Part shown: one piece after another, positions 2,274-51,543 of the stretch
Layout of the letters: every line of letters starts with the position of its first letter
How positions within the stretch are numbered: the stretch's first letter is position 1
Virus genome (UHGV): UHGV-0185078
Strand: one strand, 5' to 3'
DNA length: 59,749 nt
DNA from: a virus
Made by a program: the position numbers and the translations under genes
The notes under the pieces: model-generated
Databases searched by the model: none
Told to the model about the DNA's origin: nothing
Seen by the model: only the letters and a program-made list of their open reading frames with translations

Positions 2274-5200
2274 TGGCCGAAACTGCTTCGCTAGTAATCA
2301 GGGTTGACGCGAAAGGGATTAGCACAGCGGACTCCATGCTGCGTAACCTTGCGCGTACAGGTGACACAGCGGAGCGTTCCGCTCAACGTGTCACATCCAG
2401 CTATAAAACATTGTCTAACACATCTAACGAACTTGCAACTGTCACAAGTCGTTTAGATGCTGCAATTGTAGGAATGATCAGCGTTGACACCATTAACCGT
2501 GTTATTTCGCTATCGGACTCCTGGACTATCCTCACCAACAAACTTGAACTGGCTCGTACGGGTAATGAAACCGTTGCGGATGCACAGCAACGCGTGTTTG
2601 ATATTGCCCAGCGGTCACGTACAAGCTTGGAAGCAACTGCAACTCTATATTCCCGTCTCCAGCGTGCAATGAAGAATACTGGTATGACGGGTATGGAGCT
2701 TGGACGTATCACTGAAACAATCAACAAAGCGATGATTGTTTCCGGTGCAACATCACATGAAGCAAGCGCTGCCCTTATTCAGTTTTCGCAAGCAATGGCA
2801 TCCGGTGTTCTGCGAGGGGATGAATTCCGTTCTGTTGCAGAACAAGCCCCGCGCTTAACGCAAATTATGTCCGATGCGTTAGGTGTTACCATTGGACAAT
2901 TGCGTGAAATGGCCTACAGTGGCAAGTTAACCGCCGATGTGGTTATCAAATCGTTGTCTGGTGCTGCGGATACAATTGATAAAGAATTTAGCCGCACTAT
3001 GCCAACGTTCAACCAGCAATGGACGGTCGCAACAAATAACCTGACTAAGTTTATGGGCGAATCCCAAAAGACTCAGGGTGCGGTTGCTGCATTGGGACAG
3101 ACGTTTGTTGCATTATCCGGAAACTTAGGAACGGTTGTAACGGTTGGTTCAGCTTTAGCCACAGTAATTACCGCCCGTATCATCACCGCAATGCTTGCTA
3201 AGACTAAAGCGTCTATAGCTGCTGCAAAAGCATCTCAGATGGAAGCTGCACAGACTGCGGCAACTACTGCGGTAATGCAAAGCTCTATTGGCGTTACTGC
3301 ACAGAAAGCGGCTGCGGATCGTGCTGCTTCGCTTGCGGCGTTACAGGTTGCTCGCGGGTCATTAGCGGTTGCTAAAGGTACGGCAGCGGAAGCAGGTGCA
3401 CGTCTTGCGCTTATTAACGCTACTCGTGCGCATTCTGCGGCAATTATGGCGGACGTACAAGCGCGGCAAGCGCTCAATGCTGCTCTTAATGCAACTGTAC
3501 CAGCGGCAAGCCGAGCCGCTACAGCAATGAGCGTGCTGCGCGGTGCTATGGGGTTAATTGGCGGTCCTGTTGGTGTAGCAATGCTGGCAGCGGGTGCAAT
3601 TTACTCCTATAAAGCGTCGCTGGAAGCTGGTCGTGCGGAAAACAATCAGTTTGCGGATAGTGTTGATACTGTACGCGATAAACTGATGCAGATGACAGAA
3701 GCTCAGTTAGCTGCTAACGCAGTTAAAGCTCGCGCAATTCTCCCCGAACTTGAAGAGCAAATGAAGCGGGAGCAAACTGCTCTTAAATCTGCAACGGAAA
3801 CGCAGAAGTTCTATGAAGCGCAATTAAAACGTCGTGCTGCGTCCGGTCGTGATACAGCCAGTGCTGAAAAGAATTTACAAATTGCAACGGATAACGTCAA
3901 GCTTGCTGCTGAACGTGCTGAAGAAGCTCAACGTCGTTACAACAATGTCTTAGAAATGACAAGCCCTGCTATCGAGAAGATAATCCCGTTAGCTCGTCAG
4001 CTTGCAGCGGATATGAAAGCAGTGCTTAATATCAAATCCGGTCCGCTTATTGACGAGAAAGTGCTTGATCGTTTTAAAGGTCAGTTAGGTGACGTTAACC
4101 GTGAGATTGACGTCAACACGGTTAAAGGTGCTGGTAACGCTCGCCAGGCTGCAATCCTTAGTGGGCTGTATCAAACTCTGGGCAAAGATGCAGACACCTA
4201 CGGAAGTCTTATTCGCAAAGTAGCTATGGGTCAGGACGTTAGCTCAGAGGCAACAAGCGAATCTGCTAAAGAGCTTGTTAAATATGCTCAAGATTTAGCC
4301 CAAGCTCTTGGCAAAAACTACGATCTTGAAGAAGCAGAGAGAAACCGGACTAAAGCTACAAAAGACGCTATTAAGGCGCATCAACAAAACGCTAAGGTTA
4401 TTGACGATTTACGAAACAAGCTTAACGAAGTAACCACAGGGGTTAAGGAAAACGCCAAAGCGAAAGCGCAAGCGGTGGCACTTAATAAGCTCAATGCGTC
4501 TGCAACGGCTGCGGAAAAAGAGGAAGTTGTTAGACTTGCTGCTGCAATCTACGATGCAGAAGAAGCTCAAAAGAAACTGGACGAGCGTAAGAAGAACCGT
4601 AAGTTTGCTCAGGGTCTGTTAGATGAAGGTATGACAGACTATGAAAAAATCGCGTACGAGCAAAATACAAAGATTGCAGAGCTTAATGCAAAACAGCGAG
4701 CTGATGATTTAGCTTACTATCAGCTTTACGAAGATGCTAAAACCCAAGTCCTGAAGAAAGCAAGCATGGAAAGGGAAAATCTGGATAAAGTTCTTATGAA
4801 CCGAATGATATCCTTTTCTCAGGAATCCTTAGGCATTATAATGGATGGACTGTCACAGGCTGTAAGCCAGCAGAACTTCTTTTATAAAGCTATGTTTGCA
4901 GCACAGAAAGCAATGCAAATCCCGTCAATCCTTGCTAACACGGAAACGGCAGCATCCGCGGCGCTTGCATGGGGTACACAGCAAGGCGGTGCTACAATGG
5001 GCGCAACAATGGCAGCTATAGTGAAAACTATGGGCTATGCGTCAGCAGCTACTGTGGGTGGCTTAGCAATTGCTGGTATGGCTCACGACGGTATTGATAA
5101 CGTTCCGCGTGAAGGTACATGGTTGCTGGATAAGGGCGAACGTGTACTTAATGCTCCGTCTAATGACAAGTTAAATCGCTTCCTGGATAGCCAAGCTTCA

Positions 5201-10098: not shown

Positions 10099-10127
10099 AT
10101 TAACCCCTCGTTTGAGGGGTTAATTTT
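10099..10127. terminator. bidirectional rho-independent terminator between J-like gene and lipoprotein gene
   Basis: Perfect inverted repeat attaacccctc-gttt-gaggggttaat flanked by A/T runs on both sides. Confidence 0.7.
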
Positions 10128-10360
10128 CAATAATCAATTACACAGTTTGAAGGTGAACCAATTCGTCGGTATTCATGATCAATCTCATGGCACCATTGTC
10201 CAGTCATTGGAAGCTTTTCGGTATCATAAATTAAAGAACCGTTACCATCACGATCTAACGGTTTTGGAATTACGCCGGAATTAGGTTTACCAGTATTTAA
10301 ACCGTTACCACATGCAGTGAGGGATAAAGTTAATGCCAGCATAATTAAAGCGCGTTTCAT
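10127..10360 (-). CDS. small lipoprotein, candidate superinfection-exclusion protein (Cor/Llp-like)
   Basis: 77 aa, MKRALIMLALTLSLTAC signal peptide with lipobox L-T-A-C; GGAG RBS; antisense to flanking tail genes and bracketed by terminator and intergenic promoter region. Confidence 0.6.
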   Translation of the reverse strand: MKRALIMLALTLSLTACGNGLNTGKPNSGVIPKPLDRDGNGSLIYDTEKLPMTGQWCHEIDHEYRRIGSPSNCVIDY

Positions 10361-13571: not shown

Positions 13572-13700
13572 TTGGCTGTCAATCCTGATTTACAAAATCT
13601 TTACATATGGATCATTGTAAAAAGCATGTTAAGGGGTATGCTTTACTTCGTAACCAGTTGGTTACATCCGCTTAACAAATCCATATATGGAGATTTTCCT

Positions 13701-14408
13701 ATGTCTGACATGACTCTTTTACCTACTAATCTCGGTGGCGACGGTTTCGGCGGTGAAGCTGGTGCGGCTGGTATCGGTGGCGCGATCGGTGGCTTAATTG
13801 GTTCCTGGATCGGTAATGGTTGGGGTGGCAATGGTGGTTGGGGTGGTCGCGGTAACTTCGCTGGCCCGGTGGAAGTGCAAGCTTCTGTTGACACCAACGC
13901 AATTCTGCAAGCTATCAACAACGGTACTCTTCAGACCATTCAGGGGCAGAACGGTACTAACCTGACTGTTGAGCGCTCCGCTGCTTCTACCTATAACGGC
14001 ATCACTCAGCAGAACACTCAGAACATGCTGGCTTCCGTTCAGGGCTTTGCTGGTCTGAACACGCAAATTCAGGGTGGCACCAGCCAAGTGCTCGCGGCTC
14101 TGTGTAGCAACGAAGCGGCTAACATTACCCGTTCTTTCCAGGCCCAGTTAGCAGCCGAGAAGTGTTGCTGCGAAACCAACCTGAACATCGAGCGTCAAGC
14201 TGAAGCTACCCGTGCGCTAATCCGTGACCAGCACGCACAGGCGCAAGCAGTTCTGATCTGTGACCTGAAATCTCAGTTGCAGGAAGCTCGCTTTGCAAAC
14301 TCTCAGTTGGCACAAACGGCTGGTCTTACTTGTAAGATCAATCAGGTTGAGCAGTTAGTTAACTTTAAACTGCCAACTCCTCCAACTCCTCCGACTGGCT
14401 GCTGCTAA
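13701..14408 (+). CDS. glycine-zipper / Cys-cluster protein of unknown function (possible fiber-associated adhesin)
   Basis: ATG 13701 after GGAGA RBS; N-terminal GGDGFGGEAGAAGIGGAIGGLIGSWIGNGWGGNGGWGG, Gln/Asn/Thr-rich middle, CCC motif and C-terminal PTPPTPPTGCC. Confidence 0.55.
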   Translation: MSDMTLLPTNLGGDGFGGEAGAAGIGGAIGGLIGSWIGNGWGGNGGWGGRGNFAGPVEVQASVDTNAILQAINNGTLQTIQGQNGTNLTVERSAASTYNGITQQNTQNMLASVQGFAGLNTQIQGGTSQVLAALCSNEAANITRSFQAQLAAEKCCCETNLNIERQAEATRALIRDQHAQAQAVLICDLKSQLQEARFANSQLAQTAGLTCKINQVEQLVNFKLPTPPTPPTGCC

Positions 14409-14479: not shown

Positions 14480-14848
14480 ATGAGCCACATTAAAATCGCA
14501 ACGATGGGAATGCCACGGGTCAAATTGCCTAAGGTTGCTTTACCTCGCATTAGCGTAGGCGAGCACCACCATGAACATGAGAAAGAGGAATATAAACATG
14601 CTCACTCTTATGCTCGAGATCATGAACATATGGCAGCTATGTCAAATGTTCTTGACCGGATGGAAGAACCTCCGCATACGTGGGCGGCGTACCACGACAA
14701 GCCCGGCGGTATGATGTCCATCGTTGAAATGGAATACCGCGAATTAATGGAGTGTAAGAAAGAAGGCGACCGCGCAGGGATCATGAAAGAGTTGACTGAT
14801 CTTGCCGCAGCTTGTACTTGCGCTCTTCAAAAAATGAAAGATATGTAA
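14480..14848 (+). CDS. His-rich protein, possible MazG-like nucleotide pyrophosphohydrolase domain
   Basis: 122 aa; HHHEHEKEEYKHAHSYARDHEH stretch; C-terminal EYRELMEC...KELTDLAAA resembles ExxE...ExxD of all-alpha NTP pyrophosphatases. Confidence 0.35.
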   Translation: MSHIKIATMGMPRVKLPKVALPRISVGEHHHEHEKEEYKHAHSYARDHEHMAAMSNVLDRMEEPPHTWAAYHDKPGGMMSIVEMEYRELMECKKEGDRAGIMKELTDLAAACTCALQKMKDM

Positions 14849-14863
14849 GAATAGGAAGCCGAC

Positions 14864-15394
14864 ATGCAAAACGTAAACGCAGGAATGGGCGTAACCCAGT
14901 TCAACGGGATGAAACCGAAAAACTCCATCAACATGGGCGGTGTTGATTGGACGTTACGTCGGGACGCTACCGATTCAACTACCATGTTCCCACACCAGAA
15001 GGTGAGCTGGCTTAATGCAGGCTGTGAACCTATGGGTGATGGAAGGGTTCATTACTGTTGGATTATGGGGGTGATACCGCCTACGCCGGGCACTATCGAA
15101 CGACCCGTGAATGTGATGTATGTCGGCTTCCACCAGTTTAAAATCACGATCGCTCCAAACTCCATTAGTCAGTCTGATCTTGATCGTATGCACGTTTACG
15201 TCAGCGATGGTACAGACTTTGCAGGGGATTTTATTAATAAGTTTCTTGGTATGCAACCTGAGCAGCCTGTAGAAGCACGCGAGCATATTAGCCCGTGGCC
15301 ACCCATGATTGATCAGGAAGTGCTGCAACCAAAGACCGCTCAAACGGTCCCTCAGAAACCGGAGCAGAAGGTGAAACCAAATGACGAAGAATGA
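14864..15394 (+). CDS. hypothetical protein
   Basis: 176 aa ORF with AGGAAG RBS. Confidence 0.45.
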   Translation: MQNVNAGMGVTQFNGMKPKNSINMGGVDWTLRRDATDSTTMFPHQKVSWLNAGCEPMGDGRVHYCWIMGVIPPTPGTIERPVNVMYVGFHQFKITIAPNSISQSDLDRMHVYVSDGTDFAGDFINKFLGMQPEQPVEAREHISPWPPMIDQEVLQPKTAQTVPQKPEQKVKPNDEE

Positions 15395-15665
15395 AGGTAT
15401 TGATAAAGTTGTTGAAGGACTTTCTATTCGTGCTCATGTTATAGCCGATGAAGGTCATGATCAACTTACTATTATGAAATCCGCATTCAGCGATTTCAAG
15501 TCGCTTGGAAACTTAAGCGGGTTAATGACAGTAGTGTCGACCGGAAAATTAACGCAGCAGCAAATCAGTCTAGCTCAACGTATTGCTGTTAAAGTTATTG
15601 CGGTACTTGGGATGATTGAAGCTGAAAAGCCCAGTTCCAAGCAGGATAACGAAAGCGACCTTTAA
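15381..15665 (+). CDS. hypothetical protein
   Basis: 94 aa ORF, GGTGA RBS, overlaps upstream gene end. Confidence 0.45.
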   Translation: MTKNEGIDKVVEGLSIRAHVIADEGHDQLTIMKSAFSDFKSLGNLSGLMTVVSTGKLTQQQISLAQRIAVKVIAVLGMIEAEKPSSKQDNESDL

Positions 15666-15676
15666 GGAGGTCTACG

Positions 15677-15880
15677 ATGTGTGGTAATACTAACCGTTGC
15701 TGTCTAGGCAGTCCTGCAACACAAGCAGGTATACTTCAGGGGCAATTGGCTCAAGCGGCGTGTAATTGCAAAACTTTTCAACCAGTAGCCCCAACTCCTG
15801 TTTTTGTGAATGCTTTTGCACCGCCTGTTTTCAATACTTTTGGCGTATACCCATACGGTGCTTTCTTTCGTATATTCTAA
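15677..15880 (+). CDS. small Cys-rich hypothetical protein
   Basis: 67 aa, AGGAGG RBS; MCGNTNRCC...ACNC; last gene of the rightward unit before a bidirectional terminator. Confidence 0.45.
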   Translation: MCGNTNRCCLGSPATQAGILQGQLAQAACNCKTFQPVAPTPVFVNAFAPPVFNTFGVYPYGAFFRIF

Positions 15881-15887
15881 GAAGAGA

Positions 15888-15913
15888 AAAGGGGGCAAAC
15901 GCCCCCTTTCTTT
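15888..15913. terminator. bidirectional terminator at the convergence of rightward and leftward units
   Basis: aaagggggc-aaac-gcccccttt perfect hairpin with A-run upstream and T-run downstream. Confidence 0.65.
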
Positions 15914-16193
15914 AACGCTTATGAAAAGCTGACAGGATTGCAAGTGTTACAGCACCCAATCCAACGACGGTAGCATAAGTGAGTTGATGTTGAACTTTAA
16001 CAAAACCGTAATGGGTGCTAGGGATCTCCACAACCCCAAACGCCATAGCAAAACTTGTCCCAAGCAGTGCAACAGCAAGGGCGCGTAATAACGCCCTGCT
16101 CATTGCTGTAAAGCCCTTCTCATTACTATCTCCGGTCATTATAACAACAATGATTAGAAATAGCGCAACGACAACTAATAGATATTCCATCAT
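15912..16193 (-). CDS. small membrane protein
   Basis: 93 aa with 2-3 predicted hydrophobic helices. Confidence 0.45.
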   Translation of the reverse strand: MMEYLLVVVALFLIIVVIMTGDSNEKGFTAMSRALLRALAVALLGTSFAMAFGVVEIPSTHYGFVKVQHQLTYATVVGLGAVTLAILSAFHKR

Positions 16194-16396
16194 TTGCGTT
16201 TCCTGTACATGTATTGATCATATGCAGTCGCAATAATAGTGACTGGCCAGCAAGCAAGTATACATAGAAGACTCACAAGCTTCTCCCAACGTTTCTTATG
16301 GGCTATCGCATAACCATAGTTATCCCAACAAAAGAAATAAGTCATTGCCGCAATAACTGCGCCGATTACAAAATACATAACTACATATTCATTCAT
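16190..16396 (-). CDS. small membrane protein
   Basis: 68 aa, two hydrophobic segments; ATG overlaps upstream stop (ATGA); GGAG RBS. Confidence 0.45.
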   Translation of the reverse strand: MNEYVVMYFVIGAVIAAMTYFFCWDNYGYAIAHKKRWEKLVSLLCILACWPVTIIATAYDQYMYRKRK

Positions 16397-16584
16397 TTAG
16401 CAAACTCCCAAATTAGATTATAATTATTGCCCACTGGTACATAACGCCCTGGACGTGAGTCGAAGCTTTTCACTGAAAATTCCAGCGTTCCAGCGCTATA
16501 TAATTGCACCTTCTGCCCGTCCCACGGTCCACCTATCAATTTAAAAGTCTGTCGATAACCTTTTGCTGCTCTAGCCATATTCAC
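16393..16584 (-). CDS. hypothetical protein
   Basis: 63 aa ORF with GGAG RBS. Confidence 0.4.
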   Translation of the reverse strand: MNMARAAKGYRQTFKLIGGPWDGQKVQLYSAGTLEFSVKSFDSRPGRYVPVGNNYNLIWEFAK

Positions 16585-16592
16585 TCCTTAAA

Positions 16593-16614
16593 ATACCCGC
16601 GCGAACGCGGGTAT
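16593..16614 (-). terminator. hairpin terminator within the small-protein operon
   Basis: atacccgcg-cgaa-cgcgggtat perfect palindrome; U-rich on the minus-strand 3' side. Confidence 0.5.
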
Positions 16615-16621
16615 TATTTTA

Positions 16622-16828
16622 TTACGCTTCCGGTGATTCCGGAGTTGGCTCATTTGGAACAACAATAACGTCCGCTAAAACTTTTAACGCTTCTTGCTGC
16701 TCCGCGGTCATATTATTCCAGTAATAGACGTGAATGTAAACTACTGGTTTGTCACCATGTTGCCACGGTTCGCGACTTACTACATCCGCAGCTAAATCGC
16801 TTGCTACGCTCTTTTCTTTACCAGCCAT
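16622..16828 (-). CDS. hypothetical acidic protein
   Basis: 68 aa ORF followed by a terminator hairpin. Confidence 0.4.
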   Translation of the reverse strand: MAGKEKSVASDLAADVVSREPWQHGDKPVVYIHVYYWNNMTAEQQEALKVLADVIVVPNEPTPESPEA

Positions 16829-16860
16829 GCTAATATACCCCTTTAAGGTTTTACACGCGG

Positions 16861-17154
16861 CTAGCCCCCAAAAGCACCCCTATGATCAAGGGTTCTAATG
16901 CGCTGCTCCAGCCAACGTGCGTTCTTTTCAAAATGTTTATTGGTACGCGCTGCTTTGCACGCATCAATAATACCTAACTCACATCCAAGCTGCGTTTGTC
17001 CCATCACGTAAGAATGGGTTAACATGCTGGATACAAGATCTTCACATTGTAACTTAATAGGATGGTCTTGGCATAGTTTCTTTGCTGCATCTTTTAAATC
17101 CACAGCTTGGACACCAGGCGCTATCAGCAAAGTTACGAGTAATAAACGTTTCAT
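16861..17154 (-). CDS. small secreted protein (signal peptide, 4 Cys)
   Basis: 97 aa, MKRLLLVTLLIAPGVQA signal-peptide-like N-terminus. Confidence 0.45.
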   Translation of the reverse strand: MKRLLLVTLLIAPGVQAVDLKDAAKKLCQDHPIKLQCEDLVSSMLTHSYVMGQTQLGCELGIIDACKAARTNKHFEKNARWLEQRIRTLDHRGAFGG

Positions 17155-17438
17155 TATGCTTTCCCTTTACGGCATAAGGCTTGAAGTTCCAGAAGCGCAT
17201 CAATGTCTTCCTGTGGAGTTACACCAACGTGAATTGGATATTTAGCACGGCATTCGTAGCCAACGTCAACAGTGTGGTTAATGTAGCCGTAAACACATCC
17301 ACCAATAACAGTGAAGATAAGCGCAACAATCATTGTAAGGTATTTACCTTGTTTGCGTTCTTCATTTTGTTTATTAAGCTGACGGTTAAGTTCCACCGCG
17401 TCAATTTTACCTTTATTGTAATCGTCTACTAAGCTCAT
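17154..17438 (-). CDS. membrane-anchored hypothetical protein
   Basis: Start set to ATG 17438 (AGGAGA RBS 7 nt upstream) rather than the TTG at 17510; one central hydrophobic helix. Confidence 0.45.
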   Translation of the reverse strand: MSLVDDYNKGKIDAVELNRQLNKQNEERKQGKYLTMIVALIFTVIGGCVYGYINHTVDVGYECRAKYPIHVGVTPQEDIDALLELQALCRKGKA

Positions 17439-17502
17439 TTTGCATCTCCTCTTGTTGTATGCATATATTAAAACAGACCAGCGAATGGTCTGCAAGTAGA
17501 AT

Positions 17503-50104: not shown

Positions 50105-50542
50105 ATGGCACTTCAACCTCGTGGTATTCGTAATAACAATCCAGGTAATATTCGCTGGGGTGACAATTGGCAGGGCTTAGTTCCTGCTGATAAGCGAACC
50201 GATAAATCTTTTGCTCAATTCACGCAACCGATTTACGGCATTCGTGCACTAGCGAAAATCCTGACAAACTACACCAAACGTGAAGGCTTACCCAATGTGG
50301 GTAAGAAAAACATCGACACTGTACGTGAAATCATCACTCGCTGGGCACCGCCTAACGAAAACGATACGGAAGCGTATATTCGCTCTGTTGCCAAAGCAAT
50401 TGGTGTTCAACCTAACGATCCAATTAATGTCTTTGACAAGGCAATTATGTCAGGATTGGTGAAAGCAATCATTCGTCATGAAAATGGCATGATGCCCTAT
50501 ACCGACGACGTAATTAACCGCGCTATTGCAATGGTAATTTAA
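50105..50542 (+). CDS. putative endolysin (peptidoglycan hydrolase)
   Basis: ATG 50105 with GGAGG RBS; 145 aa soluble protein immediately upstream of holin and spanin genes; fold class not assigned. Confidence 0.5.
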   Translation: MALQPRGIRNNNPGNIRWGDNWQGLVPADKRTDKSFAQFTQPIYGIRALAKILTNYTKREGLPNVGKKNIDTVREIITRWAPPNENDTEAYIRSVAKAIGVQPNDPINVFDKAIMSGLVKAIIRHENGMMPYTDDVINRAIAMVI

Positions 50543-50547
50543 CTGAC

Positions 50548-50569
50548 GGGGCGTTAGCCCCTTTTATTT
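50548..50569 (+). terminator. candidate attenuator/terminator between endolysin and holin
   Basis: ggggc-gtta-gcccc hairpin followed by ttttattt. Confidence 0.4.
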
Positions 50570-50578
50570 GGAGGGAAC

Positions 50579-50923
50579 ATGTTCAATTCACCCAACGAAC
50601 ATTGGGCAGTTCTAGCGGGGTTTGCGTTTATCTCCCTTATTGGGGGAGCTCTCGGTTATGTTATGCGTACAATAGACGCTGGTAAGAAAGTACGGGCAAG
50701 CATTGCATTTCTTGAAGGCTTATCCGCCGCTTTCTTTGGCGTTATAATGTATGCGATCTACAGGGAGTTTAACATCAGCCTTTGGTTCGCTTTTGGCCTT
50801 GCTGGCCTATTTGCTTGGGCAGGTTCACGTGCTACGCTAAAAGCCCTAACGTCGCTTATAGCTTCACGGACAGGGATCAAACTCGATTCAGGGGACTGCA
50901 AACATGAAAACGATTCTAAATAA
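50579..50923 (+). CDS. holin (three transmembrane helices)
   Basis: 114 aa, three hydrophobic helices, charged C-terminus; GGAGGG RBS. Confidence 0.6.
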   Translation: MFNSPNEHWAVLAGFAFISLIGGALGYVMRTIDAGKKVRASIAFLEGLSAAFFGVIMYAIYREFNISLWFAFGLAGLFAWAGSRATLKALTSLIASRTGIKLDSGDCKHENDSK

Positions 50924-51380
50924 CTTCTTCGGTTTTATAAAAACTAAACCGCGTCTGTTTATCGAGTATTTGATGATCGGCGCGGTTGTGTTTTTATGCG
51001 GGGTGGCTGCTTACTTGTGGTCACAGAACGAGCTCAGCAAAACTAATTTAAATCATGCTGAGCAAAGACTAACCGTTGTAGAACGGGACAATGCAAAGCT
51101 GGGCGAAGCTGTTGTATTTCTTGCATCCCAACGGGAGAAGGATACTGAATCCTATCGAAAATTGGCTTCAGCAATTGAAAGTGAGCAACATAACCACAGG
51201 TTGCTTCAGGACAAATTAAAAGCACTGGAGAAAAGCAATGCCGACGTCAAAGCTTATCTTAATGAGCGTGTTCCTGATGATTTGCGCAGGCTGCTCGACG
51301 GAGATACAACCTCCACCACCGCCACAGATAGTGAAGATAAAACTTCCGGCTCATCTGTTGGTAGAATGTCGGGAAGTTGA
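50904..51380 (+). CDS. i-spanin (Rz-like)
   Basis: N-terminal transmembrane helix, coiled-coil periplasmic domain; contains the o-spanin gene in another frame. Confidence 0.55.
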   Translation: MKTILNNFFGFIKTKPRLFIEYLMIGAVVFLCGVAAYLWSQNELSKTNLNHAEQRLTVVERDNAKLGEAVVFLASQREKDTESYRKLASAIESEQHNHRLLQDKLKALEKSNADVKAYLNERVPDDLRRLLDGDTTSTTATDSEDKTSGSSVGRMSGS

Positions 51381-51543
51381 TAAATATCCTTTGGTTTATA
51401 CAAGGGACATTATCCAACGTTTGCAGGATACAGAAACAGCTCTGACTGAATGTAAACTGAGGGTTAAGGAAATCATACGCTATGAAGCTGAAAATGTTTC
51501 GCTTGATTTTGTAGGATCAAGCAATTATATTCAGCCTAAATAG
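51238..51543 (+). CDS. o-spanin (Rz1-like lipoprotein)
   Basis: LMICAGCS lipobox then PPPPP tract; starts inside the i-spanin gene and extends past it. Confidence 0.55.
   Translation: MPTSKLILMSVFLMICAGCSTEIQPPPPPQIVKIKLPAHLLVECREVDKYPLVYTRDIIQRLQDTETALTECKLRVKEIIRYEAENVSLDFVGSSNYIQPK

Follow-up and report, generated by a model that had tools for sequence, protein, structure and literature searches.

What does a lytic phage gain from a row of six very small genes lying directly behind its DNA polymerase gene? The question is raised by positions 15912-17438 of the virus genome UHGV-0185078, whose 59,749 nucleotides were analyzed as a whole and are called the window below. The locus consists of six minus-strand open reading frames (ORFs), named O6 to O1 in the order of transcription, at the far end of a leftward replication operon; O6 starts 65 nt past the stop codon (17503) of the DNA polymerase gene, polB. 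A first-pass annotation had placed six ORFs of 63-97 amino acids here, downstream of polB and tightly packed with overlapping stops and starts. The coordinates were confirmed and so was the packing, with three overlapping junctions and gaps of 32 nt (O5-O4) and 43 nt (O4-O3) at the other two. The results presented here indicate that the six ORFs are genuine protein-coding genes under purifying selection and that together they are a Seuratvirus-specific, individually non-essential accessory cassette. That the block is real, accessory and dispensable is very likely. The best explanation of the block as a whole, proposed tentatively, is a conditional-fitness cassette in which O3 acts against the bacteriophage exclusion (BREX) defense and the proteins of the cell envelope exclude other phages or remodel that envelope.

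Same-strand ORFs of at least 60 amino acids cover 95.5% of the region, a proportion that averaged 11% and reached at most 64% in 2000 shuffles of the sequence. Across 11 closely related genomes the ratio of non-synonymous to synonymous substitution rates (dN/dS) was 0.07-0.26 for all six genes and 0.02 for polB; the lowest value of the block belonged to O1 (0.07), the best conserved of the six. The genes are therefore real, because the ORF coverage exceeds that of the shuffled sequences and selection on them is purifying. Their sequences diverge rapidly nonetheless. In the comparison with the Salmonella phage STP-SP5, dN was 0.13-0.43 for the genes of the block and 0.063 for polB, and the non-synonymous divergence of the block amounted to 2-15 times that of polB. 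No gene-wide positive selection was found, the dN/dS values being 0.35 or lower. The possibility that the ORFs are decaying or meaningless filler is extremely improbable. It would agree with the facts that all six are singly dispensable, that natural nonsense and deletion alleles exist and that there is no homology to named families, but the dN/dS values already contradict it, with purifying selection on every gene. Moreover, 34-36 of the 36 sequenced Seuratviruses retain the genes, O1 and O3 are retained in other genera, and the block shows conserved cysteines, a signal peptide, Shine-Dalgarno sites and coupling.

Judged by its layout, the window covers a whole Seuratvirus genome; the phages Seurat, SeppeHuegi and DruSM1 are about 95% identical to it, and the phage is strictly lytic. 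The 2.4 kb around the block are 93-96% identical to 34 phage records, almost all from E. coli Seuratviruses, among them Seurat, SeppeHuegi (Bas24), CAjan, slur01 and DruSM1 (subfamily Queuovirinae). In HdK1, a member of the sister genus Nonagvirus, polB is followed by a terminator and then by converging late genes; the block is absent at this same junction, and tblastn of the six proteins against HdK1 gave no match for any of them. Divergent members of Seuratvirus carry parts of it. The Hafnia phage yong3 (polB 80% identical) has O6 (43%), O5 (30%), O3 (50%), O1 (56%) and a divergent O2, and lacks O4, while STP-SP5 (polB 92%) has O6 (51%), O5 (67%), O4 (57%), O3 (63%) and O1 (79%), and lacks O2. 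There are also natural knockouts, as SeppeHuegi carries a nonsense codon in O6 and VogelGryff lacks O1 and half of O2. In VogelGryff (MZ501110.1; locus 1660-1780), a deletion fuses the 3' part of gene A, the first of five late genes (A-E) that converge on O1, to codon 36 of O2; the genes B-E and O1 are gone together with half of O2, and this BASEL phage is still viable.

A knockout screen covers the block as well. Ojima et al. (bioRxiv 10.1101/2024.04.14.589459) attempted the deletion of every ORF of DruSM1 and examined how the mutants plate on E. coli DH10B equipped with 33 defense systems. When the primer sequences of that paper were matched to the genome, DruSM1 ORF30-35 corresponded to O1-O6 in that order (ORF32 being O3), and the single deletion phages were obtained for 6 of 6 (Table S1 of that work). 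The locus resembles a moron in two respects, the junction without it in close relatives and dispensability for lytic growth (published deletions plus natural alleles); terminator-like hairpins stand on both sides of it and inside it. A prophage origin was discarded after a blastn comparison with 5,426 complete E. coli genomes gave no match. The first-pass annotation had assigned the block to the clusters that often encode host-takeover, superinfection-exclusion or anti-defense functions. A dispensable accessory cluster that works where phage meets host or rival phage does fit the evidence, because the block is absent in Nonagvirus, evolves faster than polB and is made of genes that can be deleted singly. 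Among the functions named, only the BREX connection of O3 has experimental backing, and no sequence or fold similarity was found in support of superinfection exclusion or host takeover. The finding that would have spoken against such functions, dispensability of all six genes with no phenotype, is partly approached by the screen, in which five deletions have no defense entry and that of ORF32 is flagged.

The flagged gene is the one on which the anti-BREX part of the proposal is built. Among the six, the column 'defence changed by deletion' is filled in for ORF32 alone, where it reads 'Brex type1'; for the other five deletions, those of all four envelope genes included, this column is blank, and Table S2 lists PCR check primers for the ORF32 deletion (10.1101/2024.04.14.589459). 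A polar effect behind the phenotype is unlikely because the deletions of O2 and O1, the genes downstream, carry no BREX entry. It is also unlikely that O3 is part of the deazaguanine pathway, or merely a helper of it, because a relative of O3 is found in the Erwinia phage AH03, and deazaguanine genes are missing from the annotation of that genome. O3 is most likely a candidate helper against BREX type I, on the basis of a single uncomplemented knockout-screen result; that the protein is genuinely BREX-related we regard as somewhat less than an even bet. Table S1 of the same work (10.1101/2024.04.14.589459) likewise flags 'Brex type1' for DruSM1 ORF38, a 76-amino acid ORF between the clamp gene and dpdA, and it records deletion phages as obtained for the DNA polymerase (ORF36) and for the sliding clamp (ORF37), an unexpected outcome for genes of replication.

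The O3 protein is basic, with an isoelectric point (pI) of 9.9 (9 K/R versus 4 D/E), has no hydrophobic segment and is predicted to be soluble and all-beta; its AlphaFold2 model is poor, with a predicted local distance difference test score (pLDDT) of 54. It was matched in 41 of 50,697 phage records, including those of AH03, of Klebsiella phages and of a Vibrio phage. An initial protein search had given 8 clusters; when 1.84 billion proteins were searched by full HMMER with a profile of O3, the family grew to about 35 clusters (50% identity). The members of this family are basic, 55-90 amino acids long, and share the motifs GGPxDG, GTLxF, GRY and WE; 31 of them were compared with Pfam and none had a match. 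O3 is the most polymorphic of the six genes among close relatives. Its residues 45-56 occur in at least three allele types and the dS of the gene is about 1, a pattern that looks like an exchange of alleles. In AH03 (2305-3355), the O3-like gene lies among small membrane or secreted proteins, with a 67-amino acid protein with two helices upstream and a helix-bearing 71-amino acid protein and a 101-amino acid secreted protein downstream. In the Klebsiella phage Kpn2-P2, an unannotated O3-like ORF is found immediately upstream of the lysis cassette. The other soluble product of the block, O4, is acidic (pI 4.6), without a hydrophobic segment, and occurs in 35 Seuratvirus records, including STP-SP5 with the 57% identity given above. 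Table 1 lists the genes of the block together with the signals and the other loci of the window that are discussed below.

Table 1. Genes, signals and related loci of the window (positions in nucleotides).
Feature	Position	Strand	Length	Remarks
O6	17154-17438	-	94 aa	
O5	16861-17154	-	97 aa	
O4	16622-16828	-	68 aa	
O3	16393-16578	-	61 aa	from ATG; 63 aa from GTG (16393-16584)
O2	16190-16396	-	68 aa	
O1	15912-16193	-	93 aa	last gene of the operon
A	13698-14408	+	236 aa	glycine-rich, cysteine-rich
B	14480-14848	+	122 aa	weakly MazG/PRA-PH-like
C	14864-15394	+	176 aa	
D	15381-15665	+	94 aa	
E	15677-15880	+	67 aa	cysteine-rich, starts MCGNTNRCC
Post-polB hairpin with T-run	17473-17493	-		terminator-like; between polB stop and O6; from scan
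Internal GC-rich 10-bp hairpin with short T-run	16592-16615	-		just ahead of the O3 Shine-Dalgarno site
Bidirectional intrinsic terminator	15887-15910	both		common to the block and the converging late operon
TTGCAG-N17-TTTAAT	17473-17500	-		promoter-like motif, sub-threshold
TTTACA-17-AATAAT	16712-16740	-		promoter-like motif inside O4
Lipoprotein gene	10127-10360	-	77 aa	lipobox LTAC, phrog_12984; directly after the gpJ-like tail-tip gene
Lysis cassette	50105-51543			full endolysin/holin/Rz/Rz1 set

The window begins with plus-strand structural genes up to gpJ and the lateral tail fiber, followed by the long leftward operon of replication and deazaguanine genes that ends in the block; the lysis cassette is placed immediately before the small terminase gene. 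A Shine-Dalgarno-like sequence precedes each of the six genes (AGGAGA in the case of O6). The stop and start codons overlap as TAATG at the O6/O5 junction and as ATGA at the O3/O2 and O2/O1 junctions, and the O4-O3 gap contains the GC-rich hairpin. Two start codons had to be decided. For O3, the ATG at 16578 is more likely than the GTG because an AAGGAG site lies 5 nt upstream of it. A longer reading of O6 (118 amino acids from 17510) would cross the polB stop codon and the terminator hairpin, and it is used by no public annotation. The counterparts of the six genes are gp24-29 in Seurat and NGRRMQZB_31-36 in DruSM1, every one of them annotated as 'hypothetical protein'. More than 30 public genomes already carry these genes with such hypothetical labels, and the knockout screen has covered them. 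No paralogues of the six were found elsewhere in the window.

All three hairpins were marked as terminators by independent annotators (of Seurat, SA80RD and SA126VB) and are kept in relatives. The bidirectional terminator is annotated on both strands, and the post-polB hairpin as a terminator, in the records of all three phages; for the internal hairpin, which our scan returned as a palindrome on the plus strand, SA80RD and SA126VB call a minus-strand terminator. The internal hairpin is kept in all close relatives, with an altered loop in STP-SP5, and could act as a partial terminator or stabilize the RNA. Together with the pattern of overlaps, it splits the block into O6-O5(-O4) and O3-O2-O1. 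The stem of the post-polB hairpin is kept in yong3 and STP-SP5 through wobble or compensatory changes. In STP-SP5 (2365-2556), an additional 63-amino acid ORF stands between polB and the hairpin, and the hairpin with its flanks remains with O6, not with polB. No promoter above the scan threshold was found upstream of O6. A sub-threshold motif that overlaps the post-polB hairpin, TTGCAG-N17-TTTAAT, matches the sigma-70 consensus at 8 of 12 positions and is conserved to yong3 and STP-SP5; it may be a promoter that overlaps the terminator. Another promoter-like sequence (TTTACA-17-AATAAT with an extended TG, 10/12) is located inside O4, upstream of the internal hairpin and O3.

The description of all six products as membrane or secreted proteins held for four of them. 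O6 has one predicted transmembrane helix, O5 a signal peptide, O2 two transmembrane helices and O1 three, while O4 and O3 are predicted soluble. The helix of O6 spans residues 35-53 approximately and has positive charges ahead of it, as judged from hydropathy and charge bias; it is followed by a C-terminal domain of 40 amino acids with Cys63 and Cys89. These cysteines and the N-terminal 20 residues are conserved to yong3 and STP-SP5. The features suggest that the N-terminus of O6 is inside and that a disulfide-bonded C-terminal domain lies in the periplasm. The predicted signal peptide of O5 is of the Sec type and ends at APGVQA|VD, an AXA-type site; there is no lipobox and no cysteine before residue 28. 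Four cysteines of O5 are invariant (C28, C37, C58 and C66, in the arrangement C-x8-C...C-x7-C), and its AlphaFold2 model has four helices, with a pLDDT of 55 only. O6 and O5 are a pair that always co-occurs and is translationally coupled. They were matched by tblastn in the identical 36 Seuratvirus records and in no others of the 50,697 phage records, and a large-scale search with O5 gave 3 clusters among 5.8 billion proteins. In SeppeHuegi (MZ501104.1, 25339-25620), the O6 homologue has an in-frame TAA at codon 61, which is Tyr, Asn or Asp elsewhere. It removes the periplasmic domain, and the GenBank record annotates just a 60-amino acid remnant; the nonsense codon probably disturbs the translational coupling to O5 too. 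Residues 1-56 of O5 also gave a weak match (E 7.7e-4) to phrog_1256, named 'valyl tRNA synthetase modifier', and a protein of that name from the Salmonella phage S16 resurfaced in Foldseek at E 2.3. The match to phrog_1256 is probably an artefact driven by the signal peptide.

The two last genes of the operon encode multi-pass proteins. O2 has an ambiguous charge distribution and topology; it was found in 34 records, and the divergent yong3 version has 98 amino acids and three helices. For O1, hydropathy and the positive-inside rule predict three transmembrane helices with the N-terminus out and the C-terminus in, ending in the short positive sequence FHKR. The loop between helices 2 and 3, YGFVK[VL]QHQLTYA, is nearly invariant and predicted to be periplasmic. 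The annotators of the Salmonella phage Sasha wrote independently '3TMDs, N out, C in' for gp11, the O1 homologue of that phage. Homologues with 43-55% identity occur in Sashavirus (Sasha, 9NA and Bas82) and Eiauvirus, a profile search gave 27 clusters, and in every case O1 closes its operon. An O1 homologue in the Escherichia phage CSP1C (PQ202980.1) is named 'glutamate receptor', a name without support here.

With these topologies at hand, a role in lysis can be considered. That the block is itself a lysis cassette was rejected, as the window has a full endolysin, holin, Rz and Rz1 set elsewhere (Table 1), the holin being of the LydA type (PF16083, 39.8 bits versus a cut-off of 28.4). A different proposal is that O6 and O5, perhaps with O1 and O2, modulate this holin in the manner of T4, whose periplasmic RI binds the part of holin T that lies in the periplasm, or of other separate antiholins, and would thereby tune the time of lysis or impose lysis inhibition upon superinfection. 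The topology of O6 is a small-scale version of that of T4 holin T (N-terminus in, one helix, C-terminus out with cysteines). O5 resembles RI in being secreted, about 97 amino acids long and predicted helical, and the three helices of O1, N-terminus out and C-terminus in, have the topology of class I holins. Furthermore, the loss of such regulators is normally tolerated, which is consistent with the knockouts. Lysis control remains quite unlikely, because some 33 kb separate the block from the lysis cassette, the two lie on opposite strands and the block belongs to a replication operon, and none of its products matched a holin or antiholin family at E up to 1. In addition, O1 lacks the charged C-terminal tail of holins, its tail having just the four residues FHKR, the O1 homologues of Sashavirus and Eiauvirus are not beside lysis genes, and neither RI nor holin T was matched among PDB sequences or folds, which is a weak test.

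The genes that converge on O1 provide further information. The products of A-E fall in PHROGs of unknown function only, and A and E had no match to any named family. Protein A has a glycine-zipper-like N-terminus (GIGGAIGGLIGSWIGNGWGG...), a body rich in Q, N and A with CCC and CC motifs, and the end PTPPTPPTGCC. In Seuratvirus, Sashavirus and Eiauvirus alike, A-E face O1 tail-to-tail across a terminator common to both, although their context differs: they follow the lateral tail fiber in Seuratvirus, the large terminase gene TerL in Sashavirus and a tail protein in Eiauvirus. In Bas82 the order is TerL-A-B-C-D-E, converging on O1. By tblastn, the identities with Sasha were 88% (A), 65% (B), 78% (C), 72% (D) and 42% (E), and those with eiAU were 42-56% (A-D). 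Seurat lacks A and B and retains O1. Judging from these comparisons, A-E and O1 seem to move together between genera; horizontal transfer of the unit is indicated by the identities of A (88%) and C (78%) in the Seuratvirus-Sashavirus comparison.

Then, O1 could be the immunity partner of A-E, which would be membrane-active or virion-associated, and the other five genes would be unrelated passengers. In this case O1 would either shield the producing cell or keep out phages bearing A-E. The opposite-strand layout recalls the gene pairs of colicins and their immunity proteins and the T5 oad/llp genes. The convergent arrangement in three differing genera and three genomic contexts, the transfer of the unit suggested by the identities of A and C, and the glycine-zipper-like N-terminus and many cysteines of protein A agree with this idea. 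However, the partners are separable, since Nonagvirus has A-D without O1, a Sasha-like contig from IMG/VR has O1 without A-E and Seurat has O1 without A and B; DruSM1, moreover, keeps A-E and yet tolerates the deletion of O1. A lethal toxin/immunity relation is unlikely because O1 can be deleted in a phage that bears A-E, and the proposal as a whole appears improbable.

According to the explanation that we favor, the six genes would provide a conditional fitness advantage and would not take part in replication, assembly or lysis. O3, a basic soluble protein coupled to the small multi-pass inner-membrane proteins O2 and O1, would bind a BREX component or DNA, and the phage would withstand BREX type I. 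O6 would be an inner-membrane anchor coupled to the secreted four-cysteine protein O5, with O4 as an acidic soluble protein. The envelope proteins would be made before the late genes are expressed, would target the envelope of the resident phage's own host cell and would block DNA entry of later related phages at the periplasm or the inner membrane. That the four predicted envelope proteins (O6, O5, O2 and O1) act in superinfection exclusion is a doubtful proposition by itself. O1 would be the best exclusion candidate among them because of its mobility across genera and its position on the opposite strand beside a mobile late module, an arrangement that receptor-binding genes and their partner exclusion genes are known to show. 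Two bolder readings, which are compatible with each other, are unlikely: that O1 is a new small inner-membrane exclusion or immunity protein that moves with A-E among siphophage genera, and that O3 is the founder of a widespread family of basic, BREX-countering proteins of about 60 amino acids.

Database comparisons were made for all six products, and the initial statement that they have no recognizable homology stands for named families. No significant match to Pfam, NCBIfam or PADLOC was found for any of them, including by hmmscan against Pfam-A at E up to 1; the sole PADLOC match, O1 versus ZorA (E 0.09, 9.6 bits), is noise. Each protein falls in a PHROG of unknown function. The matches of the large-scale protein searches with O5, O3 and O1 were all on phage contigs of about 60 kb and none had an informative name. 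Searches of PDB sequences with the O3 and O5 profiles and with O6 returned nothing relevant, and apart from a self-hit no Foldseek match of the O3 and O5 models in PDB or BFVD was better than E 0.6, a weak test given pLDDT values of 54-55. The KpAvs2 triggers Ksap1/2 are unrelated to the block. In the literature, no paper that tests superinfection exclusion in Queuovirinae was found.

Several points weigh against the combined proposal of BREX resistance and exclusion. The BREX phenotype of ORF32 comes from a preprint screen whose text neither mentions nor complements it (10.1101/2024.04.14.589459). A second, later preprint (10.64898/2026.05.19.726188) has plasmid-borne BREX still restricting Seuratviruses, so any protection by O3 is at most partial. 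No sequence, profile or fold connects the six proteins to a known exclusion, antiholin or anti-defense protein. The best sigma-70-like motif before O6 matches the consensus at only 8 of 12 positions. The linkage of O1 with A-E is loose, as the Nonagvirus HdK1 has A-D without E or O1 and the Sasha-like IMG/VR contig L013 retains O1 without A-E. Finally, the lipoprotein encoded directly after the gpJ-like gene (Table 1) is probably the Cor-type exclusion protein of the receptor-binding locus described for the BASEL phages, and this Cor-like protein may already cover exclusion at the receptor step.

The same features of rapid evolution could be read in terms of host defenses other than BREX. The envelope proteins would then counter Zorya, Kiwa, cyclic oligonucleotide-based antiphage signaling systems (CBASS) with transmembrane effectors, retrons, other untested host systems or the exclusion proteins of prophages. 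Fast evolution with gain and loss of genes is typical of arms-race genes, the neighboring O3 has a defense-related phenotype, and the published screen covered just 33 systems in E. coli DH10B. On the other hand, 0 of the 5 other deletions changed plating on that library, no gene-wide positive selection was seen (dN/dS of 0.35 or less), there was no similarity to a catalogued anti-defense protein or PADLOC model, and it would be unusual for an inhibitor of cytoplasmic immunity to be secreted into the periplasm. These facts make counter-defense by the envelope proteins an improbable explanation.

The host surface offers another target. Small accessory proteins (40-90 amino acids) of lytic phages are known to alter the O-antigen (Silas et al., Nat Commun 2025, PMC12373910), and on this precedent the products of the block could remodel lipopolysaccharide, O-antigen or another envelope pathway in the way of the Gnarl proteins, so that progeny avoid debris or kin phages are kept out. 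Seuratviruses use the O-antigen as first receptor on wild hosts, and an O-antigen phenotype would have been invisible in the DruSM1 screen because K-12 hosts lack it. Such remodeling is nevertheless very unlikely. The tblastn comparisons with the 50,697 records gave relatives in the genera mentioned only, and their summaries contain neither a Mu-like phage nor a Klebsiella host for five of the genes; for O3, the Klebsiella phages named are just two, of about 60 kb each. The three gnarl-bearing phages are tested in this way only indirectly. The supplements of PMC12373910 do not contain the N-terminal sequence of any of the six proteins, and the Gnarl screen did not include these genes.

Tiny, fast-evolving gene blocks are the places where phages keep many of their tools against host immunity and rivals, and most of them are uncharacterized. 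In the present case the hypotheses are directly testable, as a set of single-gene knockouts already exists for DruSM1, which is 95% identical. If the proposal for O3 is true, it adds a fairly widespread new family of small proteins to the few known BREX countermeasures, and if O1 excludes phages that carry A-E, the two make up a mobile cassette in which a late function comes together with the immunity to it. If neither is true, the block is an ordinary set of dispensable phage genes.

A comparison with known systems places the block among them. P22 SieA, HK97 gp15 and T4 Imm are, like products of the block, small inner-membrane proteins of a resident phage that are dispensable for growth; they share no sequence similarity with it, and the T4 Imm-type Pfam profile was not matched at E up to 1. 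SieA has about 160 amino acids (about 162), three predicted transmembrane helices and the C-terminal cytoplasmic motif FnRYPnEAnnFNK (PMC10461980). The three helices are a point of likeness to O1, but O1 has only 93 amino acids, ends in FHKR and on inspection lacks the SieA motif. HK97 gp15 can be set beside O6, as both are predicted inner-membrane proteins. The topology that O1 shares with class I holins stands against its location outside the lysis cassette, the absence of a match to holin families and the missing charged tail.

T4 Spackle (Sp) and RI are small secreted periplasmic phage proteins that act in exclusion and as an antiholin, respectively. O5 is like them in its predicted periplasmic location, its size of about 97 amino acids, its export signal, helices and cysteines, and in being encoded outside the late region; it differs by its four invariant cysteines and its obligate membrane-anchored neighbor, O6. 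No match of O5 to RI or Spackle was found among PDB sequences or by Foldseek at E<1, the latter a weak test of the fold with a model of pLDDT 55. T5 Llp and the Cor-type lipoproteins are encoded beside receptor-binding genes on the opposite strand, much as O1 stands beside a horizontally mobile late module, and the window shows this layout for its own lipoprotein after gpJ. They differ from O1 and O5, neither of which has a lipobox, and O1 is a predicted multi-pass inner-membrane protein rather than an outer-membrane lipoprotein. Compared with T5 Pb5/Llp, O1 would be the inner-membrane counterpart of an exclusion gene that travels with a receptor-binding gene, although A-E are not proven to be a receptor-binding locus, which the BASEL authors put immediately behind gpJ.

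Among the small protein inhibitors of BREX, Ocr mimics DNA and is strongly acidic. It is, like O3, a small phage protein tied to BREX, in the case of O3 by a change in sensitivity on deletion, taken as lower plating on BREX type I; O3 differs in being basic (pI 9.9) and predicted all-beta, and no homology between them was detected. Gnarl1-3 are short, fast-evolving genes from accessory regions of enterobacteriophages with effects on particular hosts only (PMC12373910). No sequence relation to them was found, and the likeness lies in short, fast-evolving genes of unknown fold in a variable region of a lytic phage. In this company, the six genes are an uncharacterized new example of a familiar phage feature.

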